This document shows, one piece after another, positions 2,548 through 21,908 of a stretch of 24,000 nucleotides of DNA. Within the stretch, counting starts at the first letter, position 1. Each line of letters begins with the position of its first letter. Position numbers and translations under genes: made by a program. Source of the DNA: Minisyncoccia bacterium (GTDB taxonomy: Bacteria; Patescibacteriota; Minisyncoccia; Phycocordibacterales; JAACPR01); contig JBILMG010000003.1 of assembly GCA_044375695.1 (NCBI GenBank), positions 10,204-34,203 on the forward strand. The letters are read 5' to 3'. Under the pieces are notes generated by a model that was given only the letters and a program-made list of their open reading frames with translations, ran no database searches and was not told the origin of the DNA.

Positions 2548-3693
2548 ATGCCTTTAAACTTCCGAACGTTCGCCGATCTGCCCGCCGACCTCGCCGGCAA
2601 GCGCGTCATCGCCCGATTCGACTGGAACGTGCCGCTCGCCGAGGACGGCTCGGTCGCGAACGACTACCGCCTGCGCGCGAGCTTCGAGACCTTGGGCGCC
2701 CTCCTGACCCGCGGCGCCTCCGTGCTCGCAATTTCGCACCTCGGCCGCAAGGGCGAGTCGCTCGCGCCCGTCGTTTCGGCGCTGCGGGCGCACTTTCCGG
2801 GCGCGTCACTCGTCGAGGACCCCTTCACCCCCGAGGGTGCGGCGTGCGTCTGCGGGCTCACCGCCGGGCAGCTCTGCGTCGCCGAGAACATCCGCCGCTG
2901 GCCCGAGGAAGAGGCCAACGACGGTGCTTTTGCCGCCAAGCTCGCCGCGCTCGGCGACATCTACGTCAACGACGCCTTCCCGGTTTCGCACCGCGCGCAG
3001 GCGTCCGTCGACGCGCTCCCGCGCCTCCTGCCGAGCTACGGCGGCGCCCAGCTCTCCCGCGAGGTCGCCGCCCTGTCTAAGGTTTTTTCGCCGGCCCACC
3101 CGTTCGTTTTCATTCTCGGCGGCGCGAAGTTTGAGACCAAGCTGCCGCTCCTGCGCCGCTTCCAGGCCGCGGACAAAATTTTCCTCGGCGGCGCGCTCCT
3201 CAACGACCTGCTGAAGGCGAAGGGGATGCTCGTGGGCGCGTCGCTCGTGTCCGAAGATCCGTCGGCCGTCGCCGAGGTCGCGGCCTGGCAAAACCTGGTG
3301 CTCCCGGAGTCGCTCGTCGTGGCGAACGCGGCCGGCGCCCGCCGAACCGTTAAACCCGGCGACGAGGTGGCCGCCGACGAGCGCATTCTCGACGTCGGCG
3401 CCGAAAACCTGAAGGCCTCACTCTCGGGCGCGGCGTTCGTCCTCTGGAACGGCCCGCTCGGCCTCTGCGAGGCCGGCTTCAAAGAGGGGACCGAGGCGGC
3501 CGCCCGCGCCGTGGCCGATTCCGGCGCAACCGCAATCGTCGGCGGCGGCGACACGGTCGCGGCCATCGAGGCTCAGGGTATCGCCGACAAGTTCACCTTC
3601 GTCTCGACCGCCGGCGGCGCCATGCTCGACTTCCTCGCGAGCGGCGGCGACCTCCCGGGCCTCTTGGCCCTGGCGGCTTCTCCTCGCGGCTAA
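2548..3693 (+). CDS. pgk: Phosphoglycerate kinase
   Basis: 381 aa with PGK motifs: RFDWNVPL, ISHLGRKG, NDAFPVSHRAQAS, ILGGAKFETKL, LWNGPLG, VGGGDT. Confidence 0.95.
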   Translation: MPLNFRTFADLPADLAGKRVIARFDWNVPLAEDGSVANDYRLRASFETLGALLTRGASVLAISHLGRKGESLAPVVSALRAHFPGASLVEDPFTPEGAACVCGLTAGQLCVAENIRRWPEEEANDGAFAAKLAALGDIYVNDAFPVSHRAQASVDALPRLLPSYGGAQLSREVAALSKVFSPAHPFVFILGGAKFETKLPLLRRFQAADKIFLGGALLNDLLKAKGMLVGASLVSEDPSAVAEVAAWQNLVLPESLVVANAAGARRTVKPGDEVAADERILDVGAENLKASLSGAAFVLWNGPLGLCEAGFKEGTEAAARAVADSGATAIVGGGDTVAAIEAQGIADKFTFVSTAGGAMLDFLASGGDLPGLLALAASPRG

Positions 3694-4435: not shown

Positions 4436-4851
4436 CCCAGTAGGTTTCGAATCTTCTCCGCGAATTCATCCGCCGCCGCGTCGGAGGGGAAGTTTTTGTG
4501 GCGGCCGAGGTAGCCGCCGTCGTTGTCGTCGCGGGGGATGACGTGCAGGTGGGCGTGGTGGACGACCTGGCCCGCGGCCTCGCCGTTGTTCATGACGACG
4601 TTGATGCCCGTGGCGCCGGAGACCTGCTTAATTGCGGCGGCCAAATCGCGCGCGACCTGGAACATGCGCGCGGCGGTTTCGTCGGGTAGCTCAAAAATGT
4701 TCACGTGGGGCGCCTTCGGAATTACCAGGCTGTGCCCCGGGTGGTTAGGGAAGGCGTCTAGGAAGGCGAAGACCAGCTCGTCCTCGTACAGCTTTCGGTG
4801 CGAGACCTCGCCGGCGATAATTTTTTCGAAGATGGTGCGGTTTTCGTTCAT
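4423..4851 (-). CDS. HIT-family nucleotide hydrolase/transferase
   Basis: 142 aa. Histidine-triad motif HHAHLHVIPR and N-terminal FEKIIAGE are typical of HINT-like proteins. Confidence 0.9.
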   Translation of the reverse strand: MNENRTIFEKIIAGEVSHRKLYEDELVFAFLDAFPNHPGHSLVIPKAPHVNIFELPDETAARMFQVARDLAAAIKQVSGATGINVVMNNGEAAGQVVHHAHLHVIPRDDNDGGYLGRHKNFPSDAAADEFAEKIRNLLGQPA

Positions 4852-4944
4852 GGTTCGCCTATTTTAGATTATTTTTCCCCAATTTAATTAGCTTTTAAGG
4901 GTAGGCGCTGGGAGAATGAGCTGGTTAGCCAACTAAGCTCGCCC

Positions 4945-6579
4945 GTGAACCTCCAGAAGATCGCCCTCGCCTCATCGGCCATTGCCGTCGCGCTCTCGGC
5001 CGCGGTTGGCGCCGGTCTCCCGTCCTCGCCCGCCCTCTCCCTCGGCTGGTACGGCGGCGCCTGCGACGACGCGCTCGCCCAGAACCCGGGCGACCCCGCC
5101 GGCTGCCGGTACGAGGCCCGCGAGTCGAATTGCGGCGACGACATCGACAATGATTCGGATGAGGCGGCGGACTGTGCCGACTCTGACTGCGCTGGATTCG
5201 AAAGGTGCGGCAGCTGTATTTCGTCCGGAGCCGAGAGCTGCCACAACGGCGGCGATGATGATTGCGACGGCCAAATCGATTTGGCGGATCAGGATTGCTG
5301 CGCGGGGGACTGGCTCTCGGCGTGGACCAGCGGCCTGCCGCTTTGCGGGGGTGGCTGTGGCCGAACCGAAACCGATGTCGACGGCGACTGTGAACGAGAC
5401 GACAGAACCTGGCTAGGCGCTGACTCCTGCGCCGACGGCGCCGACGGCGAAGGTGACGGTCTGGTCGACTGCGCTGACCCCGATTGTGTCGATGACCTGT
5501 TTTGCGTCCAAGAAATTTGCGCTAACGGCTCCGACGACAACGGGAACGGCTTCGTCGACTGCCAGGATATTTCCTGCTGGAACACGGCGGAGTGCGCCTC
5601 CTGCGTGGCCGTCACCGAGTCGTGCGGCAACGAGGCTGACGACGACTGCGACGGCTCTGTCGACTGTCAGGATTCCGACTGTGCTGGCGAGGCTATCTGC
5701 GGCGGAGCGACCGTAGCCGTCGCAGAGGCTTTGGGTACCGGCGACGCGGCGAATGAGGCGGGCAGAAACACCCCAGGAGCGGGCGATTCCGATGAGGGAG
5801 GAGGTGATAGCGGCACCTGCTGCGTCTGCTTCTACGGGCAGACCGGCGTAGAGGGGTTGGACGAATCTTGCTACCTCGAGAAGACCTGCGACAAGATGCT
5901 CTCCGGGGGCAAGAAGAATGGAATCTGCGACACCACGAGCTCGATGGCGGATCCGGGCGATAGCGTTAGCCGCGCCGAGCAGGCGAAAGACGCCTGTGAC
6001 GGCACTGCTGTTTCTCGGCTCTTCGGCGGCGGCGATCCCTCGAGCGTCGTCGTTATGGTCGACGGGCACAATGACCCCTCGGCCTACTCGTGCTGCGCGG
6101 ACACCGCCTCTGCACTCATTTCGGAGTACGTGATCGATGGTGATCCGATTCCCCAGAGCATCGACGTGACCCATTTCGGGTGCCAGACGTTCGATAATGA
6201 GAGCGGCGCGCGCGAGGCCGCTCGGGCGCTCCAGCAGCAAATGGATTCCCTTGGGCACGGGGGTACGGTGACTGTTTCCGGCAATCAGGGTTACTCGAAC
6301 CTCGCTAACCCAGGTGACCCGTGCGGAAAGATGATGGCTTTCACCGTGTGCGCGGACGGCGTCGAAACGAACCTGCCGAGCTGCGGCGGCGGGTGCCTCT
6401 ACACGGGAAGCGCTCAGTCTGCCGCGTGCAAAGATGATGAGGGTAGGCGACGAGAGCAGCGATGCGAACTGAAGGCGGGTTGCCAGACCGCGCCTGTCGA
6501 CAACTCTTCAGACCCGAACGGGTGCCTAGGCGAAGACCCGAACTCCTCCTGCTGCCCGAACAACGGTTCCTGGAGGTAG
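4945..6579 (+). CDS. Secreted Cys/Asp-rich repeat protein, paralog of the 2..1354 product, with a distinct Cys-rich C-terminal domain
   Basis: GTG start. Signal-peptide-like N-terminus MNLQKIALASSAIAVALSAAVGAG. It has 5 or more acidic Cys modules (CGDDIDNDSDEAADCADSDC, CHNGGDDDCDGQIDLADQDC, CADGADGEGDGLVDCADPDC, CANGSDDNGNGFVDCQDISC, CGNEADDDCDGSVDCQDSDC). A ~250-aa Cys-containing C-terminal region has no motif I recognise. Confidence 0.85.
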   Translation: MNLQKIALASSAIAVALSAAVGAGLPSSPALSLGWYGGACDDALAQNPGDPAGCRYEARESNCGDDIDNDSDEAADCADSDCAGFERCGSCISSGAESCHNGGDDDCDGQIDLADQDCCAGDWLSAWTSGLPLCGGGCGRTETDVDGDCERDDRTWLGADSCADGADGEGDGLVDCADPDCVDDLFCVQEICANGSDDNGNGFVDCQDISCWNTAECASCVAVTESCGNEADDDCDGSVDCQDSDCAGEAICGGATVAVAEALGTGDAANEAGRNTPGAGDSDEGGGDSGTCCVCFYGQTGVEGLDESCYLEKTCDKMLSGGKKNGICDTTSSMADPGDSVSRAEQAKDACDGTAVSRLFGGGDPSSVVVMVDGHNDPSAYSCCADTASALISEYVIDGDPIPQSIDVTHFGCQTFDNESGAREAARALQQQMDSLGHGGTVTVSGNQGYSNLANPGDPCGKMMAFTVCADGVETNLPSCGGGCLYTGSAQSAACKDDEGRRREQRCELKAGCQTAPVDNSSDPNGCLGEDPNSSCCPNNGSWR

Positions 6580-6611: not shown

Positions 6612-8297
6612 ATGACGCGGCAGGTAAAGGTGCGGCCCGGAATTCCGGCAGAGGCGGACGCGGCGCTTTCCGCGTTCCATCCGGTGGTGCGCAAGATTCT
6701 GTACCGCCAGGGCATCGAGACGCCCGAGGCGGCGCAGGCGTTCCTGTCGCCAGACTTTGATTTGGCGACCGGTCACCCGGCCAAAATGGCCGACCTCGAG
6801 AAAGCGGCCGACATGATTGCCGCTGCCGTGAAAGCGGGGGAGACCGTCGGCGTCTTCGCCGACTACGACGCCGACGGCATTCCGGGCGCGGCGCTGCTCT
6901 CGGCGCTCTTCAAGAAAATTGGCGGGAAGGCCGTCTTCTACATTCCGCACCGCAACCGCGAGGGTTTCGGTTTCTCGGTGGCCGGCGCCGACGGCCTCAT
7001 GGCGCAGGGCGCAAACCTAATCGTGACGGTCGATTGCGGCACCGCCGATGTCGCCGCGGTTGCCTACGCCAAAGGGAAGGGGGTTGCCGTTATCGTCACC
7101 GACCACCACGAGATTCACGGTGACCTGCCGCCGGCCGACGCCGTGGTGAATCCCAAGCGCGAGGACTGCCCGTACCCCGAGAAAATGCTCTGCGGCTCGG
7201 GCGTCGCCTGGAAGCTAGCCAAAGAGGTGCTCGCGCGGTTCCCGGACGCGGCTCCGGTTGGCTGGGAGAAGTGGCTGCTCGATTTGGCAGGCATCGCCAC
7301 CATCGCGGACATGGTGCCGCTCGTTGGCGAGAATCGCGCCATCGCGCGTTGGGGCCTGCACGTGCTGCGTAAGTCGCCCCGGCCGGGCATCTTGGCGCTC
7401 TGCGCAGCCGCCGGCGTAGACCAGCGTTACCTGGTTGCCGACGACATCGGCTTTTCTATTGCCCCGCGCATCAACGCCGCCTCGCGCATGGGTGAGCCAG
7501 AAATTGCCTTCCGTCTGCTGGACGCCGACGATCCAGAAGAGGCGGCGCGGCTCGCCAAAGAGCTCACGCACCTCAACGACAAGCGGAAAGGAGTTGTCGC
7601 CTCGATAGTGAAGGCGGTCCGGGAGCGCGTCGAGGCCCACGGCGAGCCGGCGGCGGCCATCGTCACAGGTGACCCGCGCTGGCAGCCGTCGCTCCTGGGT
7701 CTCGCCGCCTCTTCTATTGCCGACCGCTTCGGCCGGCCGGTGTTCCTTTGGGGACGCGGGGAGGGGGCGGATGCCCTGCGCGGGTCATGCCGCGCGGCTC
7801 GCGGCGGCGGCAGCGTACTCGCCATGATGGAGGGTGCGGCCGAAGCATTCGAGGTTTTTGGCGGACACCACGCCGCCGGCGGCTTCACCGTAAAAATGGA
7901 CGCGGTCGACATCCTGCCGGGCATGCTCGCGTCCGCCGCCGAGGCGATTCCCTCAGGCGACGCCGAAATTTGGGCCGACGATCTTCTGGCGCCGTCGTCC
8001 GTTGGCCGGGCGCTCGCCGACGCGCTCGACATGGCTGGGCCGTTCGGCGTCGGCAACGCGAAGCCGGTGTTCCTGGTGGCCGACGCGCCGCTCGTTGAGG
8101 TCCGCTTCTTTGGTGCCGATGCCGCGCACGCCCGCCTCTCCGTTGGCGGGGTTTCGGCGGTTGGCTTCGGCATGGGCGAAGCTTGCCGCGCGCGTAGCCT
8201 CTCGGCCGGCCAGCCAATTTCCATTTTGGCCGAAATCGAACGCGCCCGGTGGGCCGGGCGCGTCGAGATTCGTTTGCGGATTCGCGAGATCGTCTAA
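6612..8297 (+). CDS. recJ: Single-stranded-DNA-specific exonuclease RecJ
   Basis: 561 aa. DHH-family motifs: VFADYDADGI, IVTVDCG, VIVTDHH, and GGHHAAGG in the DHHA1 region. Confidence 0.9.
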   Translation: MTRQVKVRPGIPAEADAALSAFHPVVRKILYRQGIETPEAAQAFLSPDFDLATGHPAKMADLEKAADMIAAAVKAGETVGVFADYDADGIPGAALLSALFKKIGGKAVFYIPHRNREGFGFSVAGADGLMAQGANLIVTVDCGTADVAAVAYAKGKGVAVIVTDHHEIHGDLPPADAVVNPKREDCPYPEKMLCGSGVAWKLAKEVLARFPDAAPVGWEKWLLDLAGIATIADMVPLVGENRAIARWGLHVLRKSPRPGILALCAAAGVDQRYLVADDIGFSIAPRINAASRMGEPEIAFRLLDADDPEEAARLAKELTHLNDKRKGVVASIVKAVRERVEAHGEPAAAIVTGDPRWQPSLLGLAASSIADRFGRPVFLWGRGEGADALRGSCRAARGGGSVLAMMEGAAEAFEVFGGHHAAGGFTVKMDAVDILPGMLASAAEAIPSGDAEIWADDLLAPSSVGRALADALDMAGPFGVGNAKPVFLVADAPLVEVRFFGADAAHARLSVGGVSAVGFGMGEACRARSLSAGQPISILAEIERARWAGRVEIRLRIREIV

Positions 8298-11934: not shown

Positions 11935-11974
11935 CCGCCGCTACCTCGCCTGAAGCTCTGCTAGAATTTCGGCC

Positions 11975-12718
11975 ATGCTAGAAAAATTTCTCGAGGAAAT
12001 CGGCCTGTCGGGCAACGAGGCAAAGGTTTACCTGGCTCTTCTAGAGCTTGACCACGAATCGGTGCTCGAGCTATCTCGCCGAACCAGTATCAACCGAACG
12101 ACCATCTACCCGATTCTCGAGTCGCTCGCCCGGCAAGGCTTGGTGTCGGAAGTGCAGATTGGCGCCAAGACGCACTACCAGGCCGAACCGCCTGAGCGGC
12201 TAGAGACAGTGCTGGAGCGTCGTAGGGTAGAGCTCGACGGACACCGCAAGCGTCTCTCGGAAGTTGTGCCTGAGATGAAGAGTCGCATGCGCGAAGGTGC
12301 GGCTAGACCTGTGGTGAAGTACTACGACGGCAAAGAGGGCGTTGTCTCCTCGATGGAAGACTTCTTTAGTGCCGGCGCAGAGAAGTCCGACTCCATTTAC
12401 ATGGTTTACAACAAGGATCGTCTGGACGGTCACTTTACTGAGAAAGATCGAGAGCGTTACCGTGGCAAGCGGGTGCACGCTAACGTTCCGGCGGTAGCCT
12501 TGTACTGGTCTGAGAAGGTAACGCTTCCTGAGAAAGGGGTGATGTCCGAGTGCAAGAAGCTTCCGGCTGACGCGGAGGTGCTTTGTGATTTGGCGGTTGC
12601 GGGAGACAAGGTCCGCGTCATCACGCTCGGCAAGAAAGTCTCGAGCCTGATTATCCAGCACCCAGATATCGCGCACACCCTGCGGGTGATACTGAAAGAT
12701 TACTACCGGCGCCTTTAG
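11975..12718 (+). CDS. TrmB-like helix-turn-helix transcriptional regulator
   Basis: 247 aa. The N-terminal winged-HTH (LGLSGNEAKVYLALLELDHESVLELSRRTSINRTTIYPILESLARQGLV) is typical of the TrmB family. It is a paralog of 18648..19400. Confidence 0.8.
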   Translation: MLEKFLEEIGLSGNEAKVYLALLELDHESVLELSRRTSINRTTIYPILESLARQGLVSEVQIGAKTHYQAEPPERLETVLERRRVELDGHRKRLSEVVPEMKSRMREGAARPVVKYYDGKEGVVSSMEDFFSAGAEKSDSIYMVYNKDRLDGHFTEKDRERYRGKRVHANVPAVALYWSEKVTLPEKGVMSECKKLPADAEVLCDLAVAGDKVRVITLGKKVSSLIIQHPDIAHTLRVILKDYYRRL

Positions 12719-12726
12719 TGAGGCTC

Positions 12727-13080
12727 GAAAAAATAAAAGAATAGTCCGGCGTCGCAAGGTGCGACGCCGGACCTGTTTTCGTGGGCCGATTAGTGATCGG
12801 CGCCACCTTTTTCTAAGAGAGAGCTTCTCTCTGGTGGTGGGGGAGGGTTAGTGATTCACTTGGCCACCCCCTTCTCGTTTTGTTTTTTCACTTCTTTTTC
12901 CTCGGGGAGGTTTGGCTAGGCACTGTTAGTCGCGCGGTGTCGCGGGTTGGGGTCTTTCGACCCGTCACCCGCTCCGACCTGCTTCTTAGTGGTCCATCTG
13001 CACCTCCCTGTTGATTGTTGCCTGTCTCGTGGCGCCTGGTGGGCGTCGCAGATTTCCGGTCTGCCCGCGAGATATATTCT
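12727..13080 (-). ncRNA. Candidate ~350-nt non-coding RNA of unknown class
   Basis: It runs from the predicted TSS (~13079/13080, 6-7 nt downstream of a perfect minus-strand TATAAT) to the bidirectional terminator at 12744-12780. It contains no ORF beyond 3 codons. Many helices are visible, e.g. GCGGG..GGGUC-GAAA-GACCC..CCCGC, AGAGAGA-AGC-UCUCUCU and GCCGAU-CACUA-AUCGGC. There is an A-rich linker and a duplicated AUCACUAA motif. Confidence 0.45.
12744..12780. terminator. Bidirectional intrinsic terminator
   Basis: Perfect 13-bp stem GTCCGGCGTCGCA (12744-12756) / TGCGACGCCGGAC (12760-12772), loop AGG. CTGTTTTC lies downstream on the + strand. An A-rich run (GAAAAAATAAAAGAATA, 12727-12743) upstream gives UAUUCUUUUAUUUUUUC on the minus strand. 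Confidence 0.75.
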
Positions 13081-13085
13081 TTTTT

Positions 13086-13113
13086 ATTATAGCAGAAAAT
13101 ACAGGTATGTCAA
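13086..13113 (-). promoter_or_regulatory. Perfect-consensus sigma70-type promoter (leftward)
   Basis: The minus strand reads TTGACA (+13108-13113), a 16-nt spacer, then TATAAT (+13086-13091). It is embedded in an AT-rich island. Confidence 0.7.
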
Positions 13114-13229
13114 CAAACTTCCGTTTTTTCTGCTGCGGGTGACTAGACGGAATAAAAATAAATGTGTCATATAAAAACAACAAAATCTTATTTAACCTTG
13201 TTAATAAAAGCTACTTTAATAAATTTAAC

Positions 13230-13257
13230 TTGACAAAATATTTTAATCGGCTATAAT
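13230..13257 (+). promoter_or_regulatory. Perfect-consensus sigma70-type promoter (rightward) with an A/T-rich upstream tract
   Basis: TTGACA (13230-13235), a 16-nt spacer, then TATAAT (13252-13257). About 90 nt of A/T tracts lie upstream (UP-element-like). Predicted TSS is about 13264. Confidence 0.75.
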
Positions 13258-14014
13258 GCCCGCATAAGAACGTTCAAACAGTCTGACAGGTGCCTTTCGG
13301 CCACCGAATCGATTCCCCCTCCAGCAACCAACAGCCATGAAGCTCGTAGTGCTTCCGAACGGCCTCGTCATCTCCGCTAAGGAGTGGCAAGCCATTCGCG
13401 GTCGCTAATCGCGATCGTTATCTGCTTCCCGGCGAAAGCTTGGGTGGCGGGGGCTAGAGGGGCCCTGTCAACAGAATGAATTCCGCGGCTGTGAGGCTTC
13501 TGATTTCAGCCCCGCGGGAACCATCAGGTTCCCCCATCTATAGAGCCGCCGACCTAGGTCAGGCCGGCGGCTCTACGGACGGATGATCTTTAAAAAGCTC
13601 TAGAAACCCCTCCCACGCGGCTCGCGCACGAAGAAAGCTGCGCGCTCGGCCCGCGTGGGAGGTTGCAGCTCCAGGCCGTTCCGGAACCAGCGTCCGGCGT
13701 AAAAGAGGTGGCACCGTCTGTGGAGACGGGAGATCGCCACAGGATTAAACGAGCCTTCGCCCTATGCGTGGTCGACAGTTTCTCGAGAGATCCTGAGCGG
13801 TTTCTAGAGCCGCACTGCAAATATTTCTCGCTAGTCGTTAGCGGGTGTCAGGGGAAAAGCTAAGACCTCAAGGCTCCCCGAAGTACTCGCGTTCGCCGAG
13901 CTGGTTGCCCGGCGCAAAGAGGGACGCAGCCGGGGAACTGCACCCCGACACCAAAGAGCAGTCGATTGTGTTTCGGCGCATCGATCGGTCTGGGCACCGA
14001 AAACCAAAACGCCC

Positions 14015-14065
14015 ACCCTCGCGGGATGCGTATCCGGCCTGACGAGTCCGAAAGGACGAAAGGGT
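14015..14065 (+). ncRNA. Hammerhead ribozyme, type III (HH1)
   Basis: ACCCU-C| then stem I GCGGGAU-GCGU-AUCCGGC (one G.G mismatch). Then CUGACGA, stem II GUCC-GAAA-GGAC, GAA, and AGGGU pairing back to ACCCU. All core positions are present (C3 U4 G5 A6 N7 G8 A9, G12 A13 A14, A15.1-U16.1, C17). Predicted cleavage after C14020. Confidence 0.75.
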
Positions 14066-14540
14066 CAGACGAACATTCAAACAGAGGAGAAACTCTCCGC
14101 ACCGCCCGGCGCGCGAACCAATCGCGAATCGAGTGGTGCGGGGAGTTGGTTGACCCCTAGGCACGTGAGGTGGAGGGAGCTTCTGGCCCTCACCCGCGAC
14201 CTGATAGTCGCGGGGCAGTCCTGACCGACTGAAGAACGTCGTGCATCGAGAATCGCCAATACGGCTGGCTCATCGTTGAGCCAGCCGCGGAGGAGAAGCG
14301 GGTTCCTGAACCCGTGAAGTATCCACCGCTCCACAACATCTCCCCAAAGGAGAGACACAAGGTTTCGCGCTCCTGCGAGGCCTGTGTGGAGACACCGAGT
14401 CAGGGCAGTGCCTCTAGTCGAGAGGCGGCGAACAGAGATTCGCCGAAGCACTGCAATCGATGCAACGGGCTAGAGCTCGGCGGCAGATTCGGCGCACTTT
14501 TGCCGACTCATCAACCACCTAAAATCCGGCGCGTCAGCGC

Positions 14541-14600
14541 CGGACCCTGTCTCCGGGTGTGTACCCGGACTGACGAGCCCGAAAGGGCGAAACAGGTTCG
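14541..14600 (+). ncRNA. Hammerhead ribozyme, type III (HH2)
   Basis: CGGA(C)CCUGU-C| then stem I UCCGGGU-GUGU-ACCCGGA (7 bp, perfect). Then CUGACGA, stem II GCCC-GAAA-GGGC, GAA, and ACAGGUUCG, giving a 9-bp stem III with one bulged C. GUC cleavage triplet. Predicted cleavage after C14551. Confidence 0.9.
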
Positions 14601-14785
14601 ATACACGACCGCGCGTTCGCCGTCCTGCTGACCCCATTGCGGGGCACTGTCTCGACCCGAGCTTCCACTCTCAAGTGGGCCGGGAGACCGGCAAGACGGA
14701 CGGCGCGTCGGGGCGAAGATGTGGCCATCGTCACCCCGACGCGCCGAAAAGGCGCCTCGAGATCTTTCACAGAAAAACGTACCAG

Positions 14786-14837
14786 CAGCCTGCATCGGCG
14801 CGACGACGACCTATCGTCGTCGCGCCGATGCAGGCTG
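14786..14837 (+). repeat. Perfect 24-bp inverted repeat (hairpin with a 4-nt loop) inside the large RNA
   Basis: CAGCCTGCATCGGCGCGACGACGA (14786-14809), loop CCTA, then TCGTCGTCGCGCCGATGCAGGCTG (14814-14837). There are no mismatches. Confidence 0.9.
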
Positions 14838-15700
14838 AGACGACAGCCAGGGCAGGAGCGGCAGCGCCAGGAACCTAGTGCCGAGGACCGTTCGGTCCGG
14901 TGACGCTTTTACGTCGCTGAGGCGGGCAGGCTCTGTTCGCAAGCGTTTCTCGCGTCGGGTTAAAACCGGTATTAGCCGGATAACCCCGACGTTGTAGAGG
15001 CCCCGCAATAGGCTTCGAGAGAAACGTACGGCAATCGATATCCTAGGACAAAACTCTCTTCGCCTGAGAGTAGCTCCACACCCGCGCGAGCGGGGAACAG
15101 ACTGGAACCACCAGCTGGAGGATTTTCGAAAGTCAGGGAGGAGGTCGAAACGCGGCGTTGCGGCTGCGCGTAGGCTAAACCACCCATCGTCAATTTTTGC
15201 CTTATGGCCTGGTACGGAACCATGGTCCTTGAACCCACCAACCGACAGCTCGGCCTCCCGCGTGTTGCGGTCGGCACCCGGTACGGGTCGCCGAATCTCT
15301 GCCGCCTGGTAGATGTGCGCGTTCCCCGGTTCGCCCGCGACGCGCGGGGCCAGAAGCGCGCGCTCTCCAGAAAGGAGCGTCGCAAGCTCGCCCGCATGGT
15401 GTGGCACTTCGTCCAGCACGAAGGTCGCCACGGATGCGCGTCGATGCTCGGCGCCACCTTTGGCGGCGTGCGCGGCGGAAGGCCGGAAATGCGCGTCGTG
15501 AGCAACGACGGGCCGCCGGAATGGTGACGAGGACCTAAATTCCCGGAGCTCTTACGAGGGAGCGTTCGTACGGGGCGGGGAGGAGCAGACCTCCCTCTGA
15601 ACAGAAGCTCGGGCTGACTCCAAATAGCCCCCGAGCAAAGCGGATTTAAAGCCAAGGTTTCCCACAAACCTGCCCGGACGAGCACCTATCGCTCGCCGGC

Positions 15701-15769
15701 CCTGTCCGCGGGTATGACTCGCGCTGACGATGTCCGCTCGCCGCGTGGCGAGACCAAGGACGAAACAGG
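15701..15769 (+). ncRNA. Hammerhead ribozyme, type III (HH3), with an extended stem II
   Basis: CCUGU-C| then stem I CGCGGG-UAUGA-CUCGCG. Then CUGACGA plus one extra U, and stem II GUCC...GGAC carrying an extension hairpin CUCGCC-GCGU-GGCGAG. Then GAA and ACAGG. GUC triplet. Predicted cleavage after C15706, 90 nt upstream of the ATG at 15797. Confidence 0.8.
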
Positions 15770-15796
15770 TGCAAGAACTTTCGAAAAATAAATACT

Positions 15797-16183
15797 ATGA
15801 GCAACTTCAATTTTAAATCCTACGTTGGCGGCCAGCTCCTCATGCTCACCAAGGCTTTCGGTGCGGCCAGCGGCAAGAAGAACGAAATTTGGCGCCGCGG
15901 TGAGATTGCTGCCATTCGCGAAGAGGGAGACGTCGCCGTCATCGAGTTCGCCTGGACGGCAATCAAGCGAGGCGGCCGGTACTTCCTGGACGATTCGTCC
16001 TCAGAGGTGGCCGTTCCCCTTGGTTCGGCACGCAGCAGCCGAAGCTACTCGTTGGTGGCTTTCGAGCGAAGCGTGGAGCTGCGGCTCGATATGGTGTACT
16101 GCTTTACCGAGCCCGACGACAATCGGAACGTGCCGCTCTCGAAGGTAGGAGAGCAGCGTCCGATTCGGCGGACCTCAAGCTGA
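15797..16183 (+). CDS. Hypothetical protein (128 aa), no recognisable domain
   Basis: ATG-initiated ORF immediately downstream of HH3, with balanced amino-acid composition (MSNFNFKSYVGGQLLMLTKAFG...). Its stop codon is embedded in a strong intrinsic terminator. Confidence 0.6.
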   Translation: MSNFNFKSYVGGQLLMLTKAFGAASGKKNEIWRRGEIAAIREEGDVAVIEFAWTAIKRGGRYFLDDSSSEVAVPLGSARSSRSYSLVAFERSVELRLDMVYCFTEPDDNRNVPLSKVGEQRPIRRTSS

Positions 16184-16202
16184 GGTCCGTTTTTATTTTT
16201 TT
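16170..16202 (+). terminator. Intrinsic terminator
   Basis: GGACCTCA-AGC-TGAGGTCC (8 bp) followed by GTTTTTATTTTTTT. Confidence 0.8.
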
Positions 16203-16249: not shown

Positions 16250-17602
16250 GTGTCTCGGACCGTTTCATTGCTCGCCGCTCTGGCTGTCTTTGCTGCATCA
16301 TTTTGGCGCGGCGCGAGTTACGACGCGTCTAATCGTTGCCCTGCTGCGCCGCCGGATGTCCTGCGCGGCGTGGCGGTCGAGGTTCGTGTGGGCACGTTCG
16401 GCGACCGCGCGCTGGTGCGCGGGGAAAATGGAACGTGGGGTTTCGTGGCGGCGGTCGGGAGCGGGGAGGTGGCGGTTGGGGATAAGGTCGAAATATCTGG
16501 AGCCAGGGTTTTCCGTATAAAAGATTTTCTGGGCGACGGCGGACAGATGTTCCCGTACGCGAACCTGATGCGGTCCCGCGGCTACTGCTTCGAGGCGAAG
16601 CGGGGCGAGGTAAAAATTATTGGGAGTTCAGGCGGCTTTGCCGACCAGCTGAGGGCGCTCGGCGTCGCCGCCCGCGAGCGTATTGGGCGCGTCTTGCCGC
16701 CGGTGCCGGCGGCTCTTTCGGCTGGGGCTCTCTTTGGCGGCGACGACGGGATAGGCGAAGATTTAGAAGAATCTTCGCGCCGAGCCGGATTGGCGCACGC
16801 GCTCGCGCTTTCCGGCTTCAATGTGGCGGTTTTCGCCGGGGCAATCGATTTGGTGTTGCGCGGCTTCATGCCGCGCTCCGCGCGTATTTTGGGAGGAGCG
16901 GCCGCTGCTTGGCTCTTGGTGTCTCTGGCCGGGCTGCCACCGTCGGGGGTACGCGCCGCACTCGCCTGGACCGTCGGCGCCGCCGCGCGCCTATCTTTCC
17001 GGCGGGCCGAGGCGCCGCGGGCGCTCCTCTACGCCGCCTTCGTCTACTCCTGGTGGAATCCGCTCGCGATCGCCTTCGATTTGTCGCTGCAGCTCTCGCT
17101 CCTTGCGTGCCTTGGCCTCGCGGCGTGGGCGGCGTCGGCTGCGGAGAGATTGGTGGGGGTTCCGGGCGTGCTCGGCATTCGGGAGGCTGCCGCCTCTACC
17201 TTGGCGGCTACCGTTGCGACGCTGCCGCTCTCGGTGTGGTCTTTCGGGCAAATTTCCCTGGTGGCGCCGCTCGCGAACGCCGCGCTCGCCTACGCTATTC
17301 CCGGGATGATGTGGGCGGGTTTCGCCGCCGCTGCGGTTTCTTTCTCCGATGCTCTGTCTGACGCCGTCGGCTCTGTTCTCGCGCTACCCGCCGAGCTTTT
17401 CTCTTTCGTGGCGCTGCGGTTTGGCGGCTTTGCCTGGTCTAGCGTCTCGGTCTCTTCTGGTCCTGTGCTCGCGCTGCTGGGCTCGTTCGTCGTTTCGCTG
17501 GCGGCGTTCTGGTCTATCGGCGCGGCCCGTCGGCGCGAGGCCGAGGCCTGGACCTCAGAGGTTCTCCGTCTTCGCCGGTCCATCGACGAAACTTCTGGCT
17601 AA
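16250..17602 (+). CDS. comEC: ComEC/Rec2-like DNA-uptake channel protein (OB-fold plus competence membrane domain, lacking the MBL domain)
   Basis: 450 aa from a GTG start. The N-terminal region has a TM helix and a beta-rich segment. The polytopic membrane core has the ComEC-like motif GLAHALALSGFNVAVFAG (compare HLLAISGLH). No C-terminal metallo-beta-lactamase domain is present in this ORF. Confidence 0.8.
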   Translation: MSRTVSLLAALAVFAASFWRGASYDASNRCPAAPPDVLRGVAVEVRVGTFGDRALVRGENGTWGFVAAVGSGEVAVGDKVEISGARVFRIKDFLGDGGQMFPYANLMRSRGYCFEAKRGEVKIIGSSGGFADQLRALGVAARERIGRVLPPVPAALSAGALFGGDDGIGEDLEESSRRAGLAHALALSGFNVAVFAGAIDLVLRGFMPRSARILGGAAAAWLLVSLAGLPPSGVRAALAWTVGAAARLSFRRAEAPRALLYAAFVYSWWNPLAIAFDLSLQLSLLACLGLAAWAASAAERLVGVPGVLGIREAAASTLAATVATLPLSVWSFGQISLVAPLANAALAYAIPGMMWAGFAAAAVSFSDALSDAVGSVLALPAELFSFVALRFGGFAWSSVSVSSGPVLALLGSFVVSLAAFWSIGAARRREAEAWTSEVLRLRRSIDETSG

Positions 17603-17609
17603 AAGAAAA

Positions 17610-17640
17610 CTCGGCTGCCAATCGACAGCCGAGCATTTTT
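17610..17640. terminator. Bidirectional intrinsic terminator between convergent genes
   Basis: CTCGGCTG-CCAATCGA-CAGCCGAG, flanked by AAAAGAAAA upstream and CATTTTT downstream. Confidence 0.7.
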
Positions 17641-18512
17641 CAGACAGCCCCGACGAGCGAGAGCAGGAACGCGTCGCCTCGGTTGGCCGCGCCGGGAATG
17701 CCCAGCTGGCCTGCGAACTGCGCGGCCTCTTCGTCGCCGAAGTTGTCCGGCGTGTGCATGAGCACCATCGAGCTCTTGATTCCATCGGGCAGGGTCTCGA
17801 GCTCTGCAACCGTGGCGTGCACGTTACCGGCGCGCGTCGCGTCGTGGAAGAACCACTCGGCGCCGCGGGCGGCGTACTCTTCCACCAGCTCGCGGTCGAA
17901 ACGCGTGTCCATAGAGACGAACGCGCCGAACTGCGGCAGGTAGAAGCCGTAGGAGACCATCGAATCCCGCCAGCTGTCGGCGGTTCCGGGCGCGTGGCGC
18001 GTCCGGAAGATTTCAATCTTCAGCTCTCCGACGGTTACCCGCTCGGCGCGCTCGCTGATCTGCTCTGGGCGAATCACCCGGAAGTAGTCGTCGACCGTAG
18101 AGGGTGGCGACGTGTCCCAGGCGAGGCCGCCCTTGAGCGTCTCGTCCCACAGGTGCGGTTCGAGCGCGCGAGGCAGCACGAGGCCGGGCTTGCGGTTCGC
18201 CACCCAGCGGCACTCCTGCGCCGCGGTGGCTAAGCCGTTGGCGTGGTCCGCGTGGCAGTGGGACACGAAGAACGCGTCGATGTCGCCGAGCGTGAGCCCG
18301 GTCGATTCGGGGAGCGCCTCGGGCCACTTGCGGCCGCAGTCGATGGCCAGGCGGGTGTTGCCGTGGACGAGGACCAGGTTGGTTTCGCCGCGGCCGCCAG
18401 GTTTGGTGAAGGCGCCGCCGGCGCCGATGAAGGCGAGCGCGAGCTCGCCGCGATTGGTAGATTTAGGGACAACGTTACCGCGTCCCAGGTAGGAAATTCC
18501 GGTAGTTTTCAT
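17640..18512 (-). CDS. Metallo-beta-lactamase-fold hydrolase
   Basis: 290 aa. HxHxDH motif in FFVSHCHADHANG. Additional His/Asp ligand positions are typical of the MBL fold. Confidence 0.85.
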   Translation of the reverse strand: MKTTGISYLGRGNVVPKSTNRGELALAFIGAGGAFTKPGGRGETNLVLVHGNTRLAIDCGRKWPEALPESTGLTLGDIDAFFVSHCHADHANGLATAAQECRWVANRKPGLVLPRALEPHLWDETLKGGLAWDTSPPSTVDDYFRVIRPEQISERAERVTVGELKIEIFRTRHAPGTADSWRDSMVSYGFYLPQFGAFVSMDTRFDRELVEEYAARGAEWFFHDATRAGNVHATVAELETLPDGIKSSMVLMHTPDNFGDEEAAQFAGQLGIPGAANRGDAFLLSLVGAV

Positions 18513-21852: not shown

Positions 21853-21858
21853 AAGCCC

Positions 21859-21901
21859 GAAAAGAATAGCCGCCGCCCGGAGGGCGGCGGCTATTCTTTT
21901 C
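21859..21901. terminator. Bidirectional intrinsic terminator
   Basis: GAAAAGAATAGCCGCCGCCC-GGA-GGGCGGCGGCTATTCTTTTC, a perfect palindrome that includes the A/T tails. It lies between convergent genes. Confidence 0.8.
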
Positions 21902-21908
21902 GGGCGGG

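Follow-up and report, generated by a model that had tools for sequence, protein, structure and literature searches.

Three co-oriented type-III hammerhead ribozymes at cassette junctions beside a TrmB-family regulator in a Patescibacteria chromosome: a candidate system for splitting a multi-gene message

In the present study, we analysed a 24-kb stretch of DNA (24,000 nucleotides (nt), hereafter the window) from a Minisyncoccia bacterium (assembly GCA_044375695.1, contig JBILMG010000003.1, positions 10,204 to 34,203 of the forward strand). Conventional genes are nearly absent from the 3.5 kb that separate the gene of a TrmB-family regulator (TrmB1) from comEC (16250-17602). This interval holds three co-oriented type-III hammerhead ribozymes (HH1, HH2 and HH3) within 1.76 kb, and all three are genuine and under selection. 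The window and the loci related to it show the ribozymes and how these are conserved, which genes are present, and that the architecture beside the TrmB regulator is conserved. HH1 to HH3 would be expected from their sequences to self-cleave in vivo and to leave 5'-OH and 2',3'-cyclic phosphate ends. The explanation that we favour, with moderate confidence, is that co-transcriptional cleavage splits the message and gives each cistron its own stability and translation.

The three elements can be written out base by base, a slash marking the predicted cut. HH1 reads ACCCUC/GCGGGAUGCGUAUCCGGC-CUGACGA-GUCCGAAAGGAC-GAAA-GGGU, HH2 reads CCUGUC/UCCGGGUGUGUACCCGGA-CUGACGA-GCCCGAAAGGGC-GAAA-CAGG, and HH3 reads CCUGUC/CGCGGGUAUGACUCGCG-CUGACGA-U-GUCC(26-nt hairpin insert)GGAC-GAAA-CAGG. 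The type-III core was defined as C3 U4 G5 A6 N7 G8 A9, G12 A13 A14, an A15.1-U16.1 pair and H17 other than G. All three elements carry CUGACGA...GAAA, the A15.1-U16.1 pair and C17; covariation supports their three helices, of which I and II are capped and III is open. A single G.G mismatch is present in helix I of HH1. In these respects the elements agree with the Rfam family Hammerhead_3 (RF00008), with its core CUGANGA...GAAA, A15.1-U16.1 pair, H17 (here C), three helices and open helix III. They differ from it in HH3, with one additional U after A9 and the 26-nt hairpin inserted in helix II, and in their scores: 46.2 bits for HH2 (E 3e-8) and 30.9 bits for HH1 (E 7e-4), both under the gathering score of 48.5, which is a curation threshold and not a biochemical property. 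HH3 was missed by this model; its orthologue in the related locus L011 scores 39.8 bits. Rfam run on the whole window at the gathering threshold gave zero matches, and the permissive matches other than Hammerhead_3 were hairpin look-alikes of microRNA families.

Thirteen hammerheads, the window's three and 10 from related loci (labelled L0xx and set against the window), were aligned with MAFFT; 96.8% of the pairs were standard, and compensatory change was seen in 11 of the 17 pairs. None of 500 shuffles matched the observed values, and slid controls were only 34-55% paired. The covariance model built from this alignment matched the 24 kb at exactly three places, each on the + strand, with 73 (HH2), 64 and 61 bits against a next-best score of 13.6 bits, and it found no hammerhead on the - strand. 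It also recovered four hammerheads outside the training set, in L030 and L052 (54-66 bits). A fourth, degenerate hammerhead considered near 15085-15150 or 14690-14757 had no support from the model, and at the second of these sites L052 carries GAAC, not GAAA.

Each ribozyme has an orthologue with compensatory changes in the syntenic locus L052, where they are called HH-a, HH-b and HH-c. HH1 and HH-a are 90% identical over 69 nt, with a change from G-C to A-U in helix I and from GUCC/GGAC to GUUC/GAAC in helix II. HH2 has its orthologues in HH-b and at the start of L024. HH3 has orthologues in L010, L011, L015/L023 and L052 (HH-c), with compensatory changes in helices I and II. The intact cores, and helices kept by compensatory changes in every lineage, indicate that selection acts on ribozyme function and not on DNA sequence. 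As a separate observation, the first base of the metagenome contig L008 (JGI 3300042518) corresponds to window position 15706, the C17 of HH3 that immediately precedes the cut; coincidence is the probable reason, with a likelihood of roughly 2% on a crude count.

The array is embedded in one predicted transcription unit. A + strand promoter that matches the sigma-70 consensus in 12 of 12 positions starts a predicted transcript of ~2.9 kb (~13264 to ~16195), and the only + strand terminator 3' of this promoter lies at its end; none was found from the promoter to 16167. The preliminary description of this DNA had proposed three hammerheads in one promoter-driven transcript, cut after 14020, 14551 and 15706, and the sequence reading, the covariance model and the orthologues agree with it. 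If cleavage occurs, a start near 13264 yields its fragment sizes of 757, 531 and 1155 nt. It had further taken the excised units for structured RNAs, which is borne out for unit 1 (z-score of folding -8.3, without an ORF) but not for unit 2 (14552-15706, 1155 nt), which carries the conserved open reading frame (ORF) ORF107 and which, judged by its sequence, is largely mRNA and not mere structured RNA.

According to the favoured explanation, the three ribozymes would cut the transcript during its synthesis. The predicted products are a leader RNA with a 23-codon ORF, a 531-nt non-coding cassette RNA, an 1155-nt ORF107 mRNA whose long leader and 3' end are both structured, and an ORF128 mRNA starting with the folded body of the ribozyme, behind which comes an unstructured A/U-rich leader. 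Each product downstream of a cut would have its 5'-OH end capped by a folded ribozyme, and units 1 and 2 would have an additional 3' hairpin with a cyclic phosphate. In this way the stability and translation of the cistrons would be uncoupled from heavily structured upstream RNA, initiation regions would be freed, and the hammerheads would be the cassette junctions; the strict placement of ribozymes at these junctions, beside conserved leaders, would exist because cleavage separates the cistrons. The RiboJ insulator is an engineered sTRSV (satellite RNA of tobacco ringspot virus) hammerhead placed 5' of a gene. By analogy with it, a hammerhead directly 5' of the translation-initiation region would strip variable upstream RNA and define the 5' end, and cleavage would have an insulating or stabilising role; unlike RiboJ, this is a natural system, with AGWWCUUU and an A/U-rich leader instead of a designed hairpin. 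The single promoter, the single terminator, the lack of an internal + strand terminator and the conserved gene in unit 2 support the explanation. Further support comes from the selection on the ribozymes, from the position of every hammerhead of the related loci between cistrons, from the conserved junctions with differing ORFs behind them, and from the hairpins next to the substrate strands of HH2 and HH3. Furthermore, Perreault et al. 2011 showed that comparable triple-hammerhead transcripts (three triple arrays) cleave in vitro, and proposed single-gene mRNA processing (PMC3088659).

Several observations weigh against this explanation. Some 1.9 kb of non-coding sequence in the transcript is structured to an exceptional degree, which simple mRNA processing leaves unexplained, and no recognisable product is encoded in unit 1. 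With a 4-bp helix II, a GAAA loop and no obvious loop-loop tertiary contact, HH1 and HH2 are minimal. Minimal hammerheads without such a contact could be slow at physiological Mg2+, and HH1 and HH2 would therefore possibly be slow. In addition, the invariant GAACAGAAGC of the 3' element in unit 2 and the leader motif AGWWCUUU are left unexplained by transcript splitting. The coordinates of the features are collected in Table 1.

Table 1. Features of the hammerhead locus and its surroundings (positions in the window; z, folding z-score)
Feature	Position	Strand	Remarks
TrmB1, TrmB-family helix-turn-helix regulator	11975..12718	+	Pfam TrmB E 1e-15
Bidirectional terminator hairpin	12744..12772	both	13-14 bp stem, T-runs on each strand; closes TrmB1 (+) and divergent RNA (-)
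Divergent RNA, ~300 nt	12773..13079	-	12/12 sigma-70 consensus promoter 13113-13086
Hammerhead-operon promoter, TTGACA-16-TATAAT	13230..13257	+	12/12 sigma-70 consensus match
5' piece, structured leader	13264..14020	+	757 nt, up to HH1 cut; z -4.4
23-codon ORF in 5' piece, MKLVVLPNGLVISAKEWQAIRGR	13338..13409	+	MKVHILPNGLVISHEEWLATRGR in L052, same place, synonymous changes
HH1, type-III hammerhead	14013..14067	+	Predicted cut after C14020
Unit 1, 531 nt	14021..14551	+	HH1 body, structured ORF-less interior, hairpin, HH2 substrate strand
HH2, type-III hammerhead	14544..14598	+	Predicted cut after C14551
ORF107 structured leader	14599..15203	+	Optional module, motif GAGAUCUUUCACAG, 24-bp perfect hairpin 14786-14837, more hairpins
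ORF107, small basic conserved protein	15204..15527	+	GC content at codon positions 1/2/3 = 0.70/0.55/0.81
Multi-hairpin 3' element, ~160 nt	15540..15699	+	Invariant GAACAGAAGC; last hairpin abuts HH3 substrate strand
HH3, type-III hammerhead, extended helix II	15699..15771	+	Predicted cut after C15706
A/U-rich leader without Shine-Dalgarno sequence, GCAAGAACUUUCGAAAAAUAAAUACU	15772..15796	+	Carries AGWWCUUU
ORF128, small all-beta protein, fast-evolving family	15797..16183	+	AlphaFold2 pLDDT 85.7
Operon intrinsic terminator	16167..16191	+	Sole + strand terminator 3' of + promoter

The RNA around the ribozymes is structured over most of its length. In a sliding control, 12801-15200 was exceptional (z-scores from -5.6 to -7.7, except -2.1 at 13601-14000), and most coding windows gave about +1.7 to -2. 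The region 11960-14117 aligns with L052 (nhmmer E 5e-139), and the 5' piece is orthologous to L052 1903-2705, with 31 of its 125 predicted pairs compensatory. The 23-codon ORF at the start of the operon has 15 of 23 residues identical in L052 and may encode a micropeptide or form a conserved hairpin or other structure in the RNA. Unit 1 folds well beyond shuffles and has no ORF with coding periodicity. A homologue of its interior (14083-14540) was sought in L052, L032 and L030 and none was detected; at this position L052 has a different cassette, with a structured leader and an ORF of 85 amino acids (aa).

Unit 2 has a leader of ~650 nt with a z-score of -13.1, in which 27 of 100 predicted pairs are compensatory (window, L023, L024). 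The optional leader module (14599-14756) is homologous to L052 3768-3952 (E 1e-15) and is absent from L024. The base composition of ORF107 at the three codon positions resembles that of bona fide genes of the same genome; its homologues P0011 and P0012 are 81-82% identical and likewise of 107 aa, and neither a Pfam nor a PHROG family was matched. We suspected by eye a homology of ORF107 to the 85-aa ORFs of L032 and L052, which are homologous to each other, but BLASTP gave no alignment and this homology was rejected. The ~160-nt 3' element could be aligned across the window, L023, L024, L011, L010 and two copies in L032. Independent minimum free energy (MFE) folds agree in the order of its hairpins, and the hairpins covary. 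Hairpins abut the substrate strands of both HH2 and HH3.

The junctions are also marked on the downstream side of the ribozymes. AGWWCUUU lies 3-25 nt 3' of nearly every hammerhead in the family and is followed by the start codon. In the window, AGWWCUUU(N)AA occurs as AAGAACUUUCGAA, ACGAACAUUCAAA, AAGAACGUUCAAA and GAGAUCUUUCACA (sites 15772-15790, 14066-14084, 13263-13281 and 14757-14775); it is also present in L032, L030, L052, L010, L011 and L015, and the same motif type follows the transcription start. The motif resembles an enhancer of translation initiation. HH3 and HH-c of L052 share the leader CAAGAACUUUC.AAAAAU with unrelated proteins behind it, namely ORF128 and a 112-aa STIV_B116-like protein, between which no similarity was found.

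Relatives of the locus were reached via three proteins, ORF128, ORF107 and TrmB1. The window sequence is 100% identical in nine metagenome contigs, every one of those found being co-linear with the window, so these contigs provide no population variation. Via ORF128, HH3 and its upstream element were found conserved in L010, L011 and L015. The unit 5' of the HH3 orthologue in L011 has, in place of ORF107, an unrelated 156-aa ORF without similarity to it. In L013 a hammerhead lies between the ORF128 homologue and the next gene, with a large serine recombinase upstream. ORF107 led to L023 and L024. TrmB1 homologues lie immediately 5' of the hammerhead arrays of L032 (43% identity; six co-oriented type-III hammerheads in 3.4 kb with a small ORF behind each, the ORFs being of 80, 149, 93, 85 and 155 aa), L030 (46%; one hammerhead) and L052 (54%; three hammerheads with spacing similar to the window). 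The gene order TIM-PGK-HIT-RecJ-RNase H-TrmB is common to the L052 contig and the window. Overall, four Patescibacteria lineages show the same architecture of a TrmB regulator, a terminator, a divergent RNA, an AT-rich promoter region and 1-6 hammerheads. The AT-rich region holds TTGACAAAA...TATAAT promoters, a form similar to that of the window and seen in L013, L017, L030, L032 and L052. More than 200 TrmB1 homologues were found, from metagenome-assembled genomes (MAGs) labelled Paceibacterota, Parcubacteria and Zambryskibacteria.

In the related loci (L032, L052, L030, L013 and L011), the hammerheads sit between cistrons, and the junctions of hammerhead and leader are conserved with different ORFs behind them (ORF128 against the 112-aa protein of L052, ORF107 against the 156-aa ORF of L011). 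Such content, variable among close relatives at persisting junctions, could also mean that the hammerheads are mainly junctions of a mobile or exchangeable cassette system and are kept through recombination, with cleavage incidental or serving the element. We regard this as unlikely, and the evidence runs in both directions. ORF128 is 75% identical to the L010 version and the flanking MBL-fold and TrmB2 proteins are 98-99% identical (ComEC, 86%), which suggests, from sequence comparison, that the cassette evolves fast or exchanges alleles. The ORF128 family has seven 50%-identity clusters among 1.8 billion proteins, and a profile search of genome contigs with the ORF128 alignment found no relatives. 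All cargo proteins lack a Pfam or PHROG family and are ORFans, ORF128 included, whose AlphaFold2 model has no significant fold match in the PDB. The ORF128 homologue of L013 adjoins the serine recombinase mentioned above. In the nearest GTDB genome, an uncultured Candidatus Saccharibacteria MAG whose neighbouring MBL protein is 62% identical, ComEC follows directly after RNase H, without TrmB or array; this adjacency indicates that the whole TrmB-plus-hammerhead block is missing there. On the other side, the intact cores and compensatory helices seen in every lineage argue for selection on ribozyme function, and the synteny of TrmB and array is kept on the chromosomes of L050-L052. Furthermore, the window has no recombinase or phage genes, att-like direct repeats sought at the borders of the island gave none, and two pattern scans of viral contigs returned 17 loci with 0 real hammerheads.

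Two side observations concern the cassettes of relatives. In L052 the cassette after the third hammerhead (4637-6022) encodes the STIV_B116-like protein and then a Ser/Thr protein kinase, so that the cargo is varied. L030 has three near-identical 75-nt elements at cassette boundaries (2138-2212, 2936-3010 and ~5315-5390), at places that hammerheads occupy in other loci. These elements consist of a hairpin with compensatory changes, then CUCAAUUUUGAGAACGCAAAGAAAUUUGUUUUCUCAACGAUUGAGAUUGUUCUUU, and end in GUUCUUU; they had no Rfam match and could be a different processing element.

Both RtcB-type ligases and the reverse reaction of the ribozyme itself can act on the ends left by a hammerhead, and another explanation is that the excised units are ligated in one of these ways and that circular RNAs are the functional products. 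We consider it quite unlikely. The ends are chemically suited, and the HH3 substrate strand CCUGUC, which is the tail of unit 2, is identical to the HH2 substrate strand. In the MFE fold of the excised 1155-nt unit 2, this 3' tail pairs with ACAGG of HH2 (summed pair probability ~2.5 of 5), and both ends are predicted to lie in a complete HH2 active site. The preliminary description had expected, from the 14551-14021 junction, that a circle would not regenerate a hammerhead. That expectation stands for unit 1, in which CCUGU and AGGGU do not pair, but unit 2 is predicted to rebuild HH2; because its tail is identical to the HH2 substrate strand, a unit-2 circle would hold an active ribozyme and would re-cleave, which tells against circles as the products. 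The ends of unit 1 are incompatible in L052 as well as in the window, and fold prediction gave no pairing of the unit-1 tail near its own 5' end in active-site geometry. Upstream 3' and downstream 5' strands are compatible in the manner of unit 2 in the window (ACAGG/CCUGU), L052 (ACAGC/GCUGU), L024 (ACAGA/UCUGU) and L011, which is equally explained by a helix III common to all ribozymes of a genome.

Regeneration of a complete hammerhead on joining of the ends follows a mixed pattern in L032 and L052. The HH-c substrate strand of L052 fits HH-b better than its own body, but in L032 the helix III of HH-C (UUCCAU/AUGGGA) and HH-F (UUCUAU/AUAGAA) covaries with its own body and not with the upstream ribozyme. 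The non-conserved interior of unit 1 is a further point against functional circles, as is the window as a whole, which has no - strand hammerhead and no reverse transcriptase (RT), RNA-dependent RNA polymerase or ligase in its 24 kb. Perreault et al. 2011 raised circular or spliced products from comparable clustered hammerheads and reported that they could detect neither (PMC3088659). Retrozymes and viroid-like RNAs are similar to the locus in that type-III hammerheads bound a unit, the ends are ligatable and unit 2 could rebuild a ribozyme. Unlike them, the window has as direct repeats only the ribozymes themselves and short motifs, with no long flanking repeats, and it holds no - strand ribozyme and no replication or RT partner; the ends of unit 1 are incompatible, and the units are DNA-encoded operon segments carrying ordinary genes. 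A circular RNA from unit 2 is thus possible and geometrically plausible, but has only a slim chance. We give a similarly low probability to a reading in which at least the ORF107 unit is closed by its own hammerhead, within the active site, and alternates between a linear and a circular state, in which the gene-less, highly structured units serve an epibiotic bacterium as stable functional RNAs (decoys or exported effectors, for instance), and in which the cassette turnover at ribozyme junctions mirrors a modularity at the RNA level.

The conserved elements beside the ribozymes could also belong to a gene-control device, in which a signal sensed by the 3' element or by the long leaders would turn the neighbouring hammerhead on or off. 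We find such regulated cleavage very improbable. With its invariant GAACAGAAGC, the ~160-nt element immediately precedes some hammerheads of GC-rich and AT-rich lineages, including two hammerheads of the AT-rich L032, and is absent at many hammerheads of the family. In L032 this invariant sequence can pair with the substrate strand UUCUGU in competition with helix III, but the competing pairing does not covary and the window allows only 4 bp. The leader hairpins are kept through compensatory changes, which would suit a sensor; no ligand-binding family was matched in Rfam. Transcript splitting by cleavage remains the explanation that we prefer for the array.

The neighbourhood of the array is conserved with it. 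TrmB1 is the probable regulator of the two divergent promoters, each a 12/12 match to the sigma-70 consensus, that lie in the intergenic stretch. The - strand promoter drives the divergent RNA, which begins with a strong Shine-Dalgarno sequence and a tiny ORF (AUG 12997-12995, stop 12988-12986). This ORF reads AUG GAC CAC UAA in the window, AUG AGC GAC UAA in L032 and AUG GAG GAC UAA in L030, and in L052 it has 6 codons. The blocks CAACAAUCAAC.GGAGGUG and GCGACUAACAG of the divergent RNA are common to the window and L032. The z-score of 12801-13200, which covers the region of this RNA, is -6.0, and comparison with Rfam matched no family.

Some other features of the window were also observed. 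Many genes, with starts at 6612, 8689 (-), 11115 (-), 11975 and 18648, have a TAnAAT-like -10 box only 6-10 nt 5' of the ATG and no Shine-Dalgarno sequence, which suggests, as far as promoter spacing can tell, that leaderless mRNAs are widespread in this organism. By contrast, A/U-rich leaders precede ORF107 and ORF128. The intergenic region 21855-21905 contains a 24-bp perfect hairpin with a 3-nt loop, and the surrounding 400 nt have a z-score of -7.3, as extreme as the hammerhead locus. The MBL-fold protein at 17640-18512 (-) matches Pfam Anti-Pycsar_Apyc1 (E 3e-24) and is 98% conserved in L010 and 62% in the Saccharibacteria MAG; from this conservation its role looks like housekeeping rather than phage.

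Hammerhead arrays as such are not new in bacteria, so the novelty that the preliminary description had claimed for the arrangement has to be given up. In prophage regions of bacteria, Perreault et al. 2011 had already reported genes flanked by clustered hammerheads, with triple arrays in Agrobacterium tumefaciens, Azorhizobium caulinodans and Clostridium scindens (PMC3088659). As in these arrays, several co-oriented hammerheads lie within a few kb (three in the window, six in L032, three in L052) between single genes of variable identity, and processing of a polycistronic RNA is expected. The present locus differs from them in that its host chromosome is that of a Patescibacterium, the 24 kb hold neither integrase nor phage genes, all of its ribozymes are type III, and it is linked with a conserved TrmB regulator and a divergent small RNA. 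It differs further in its ~1.9 kb of structured non-coding RNA with one gene-less unit, and in its conserved 3' element and post-ribozyme leader motif. A non-exhaustive literature search found no paper linking hammerheads with Patescibacteria. No earlier description appears to exist of the conserved link to TrmB, of the divergent RNA, of the 3' element and the structured leaders, or of the way in which cassettes turn over at ribozyme junctions. The splitting of a multi-gene message by hammerheads is, in our reading, a variant of a known arrangement that is conserved in ultra-small bacteria of the candidate phyla radiation (CPR).

The natural role of hundreds of bacterial hammerheads is still open, and it could be studied in this locus, a compact system that evolution has replicated. 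The locus offers a strong promoter, a linked regulator, ribozymes at every cassette junction and two more conserved RNA elements, the ~160-nt 3' element and the long leaders. Its concrete predictions for metatranscriptomes concern 5'-OH and cyclic-phosphate ends at exact positions and one specific back-splice junction, and it may supply natural insulator parts. The small genomes of Patescibacteria rarely retain 2 kb of non-coding RNA without reason. If circles or stable structured RNAs should prove true, this would be the first DNA-encoded system of ribozyme-made circular RNA in bacteria.

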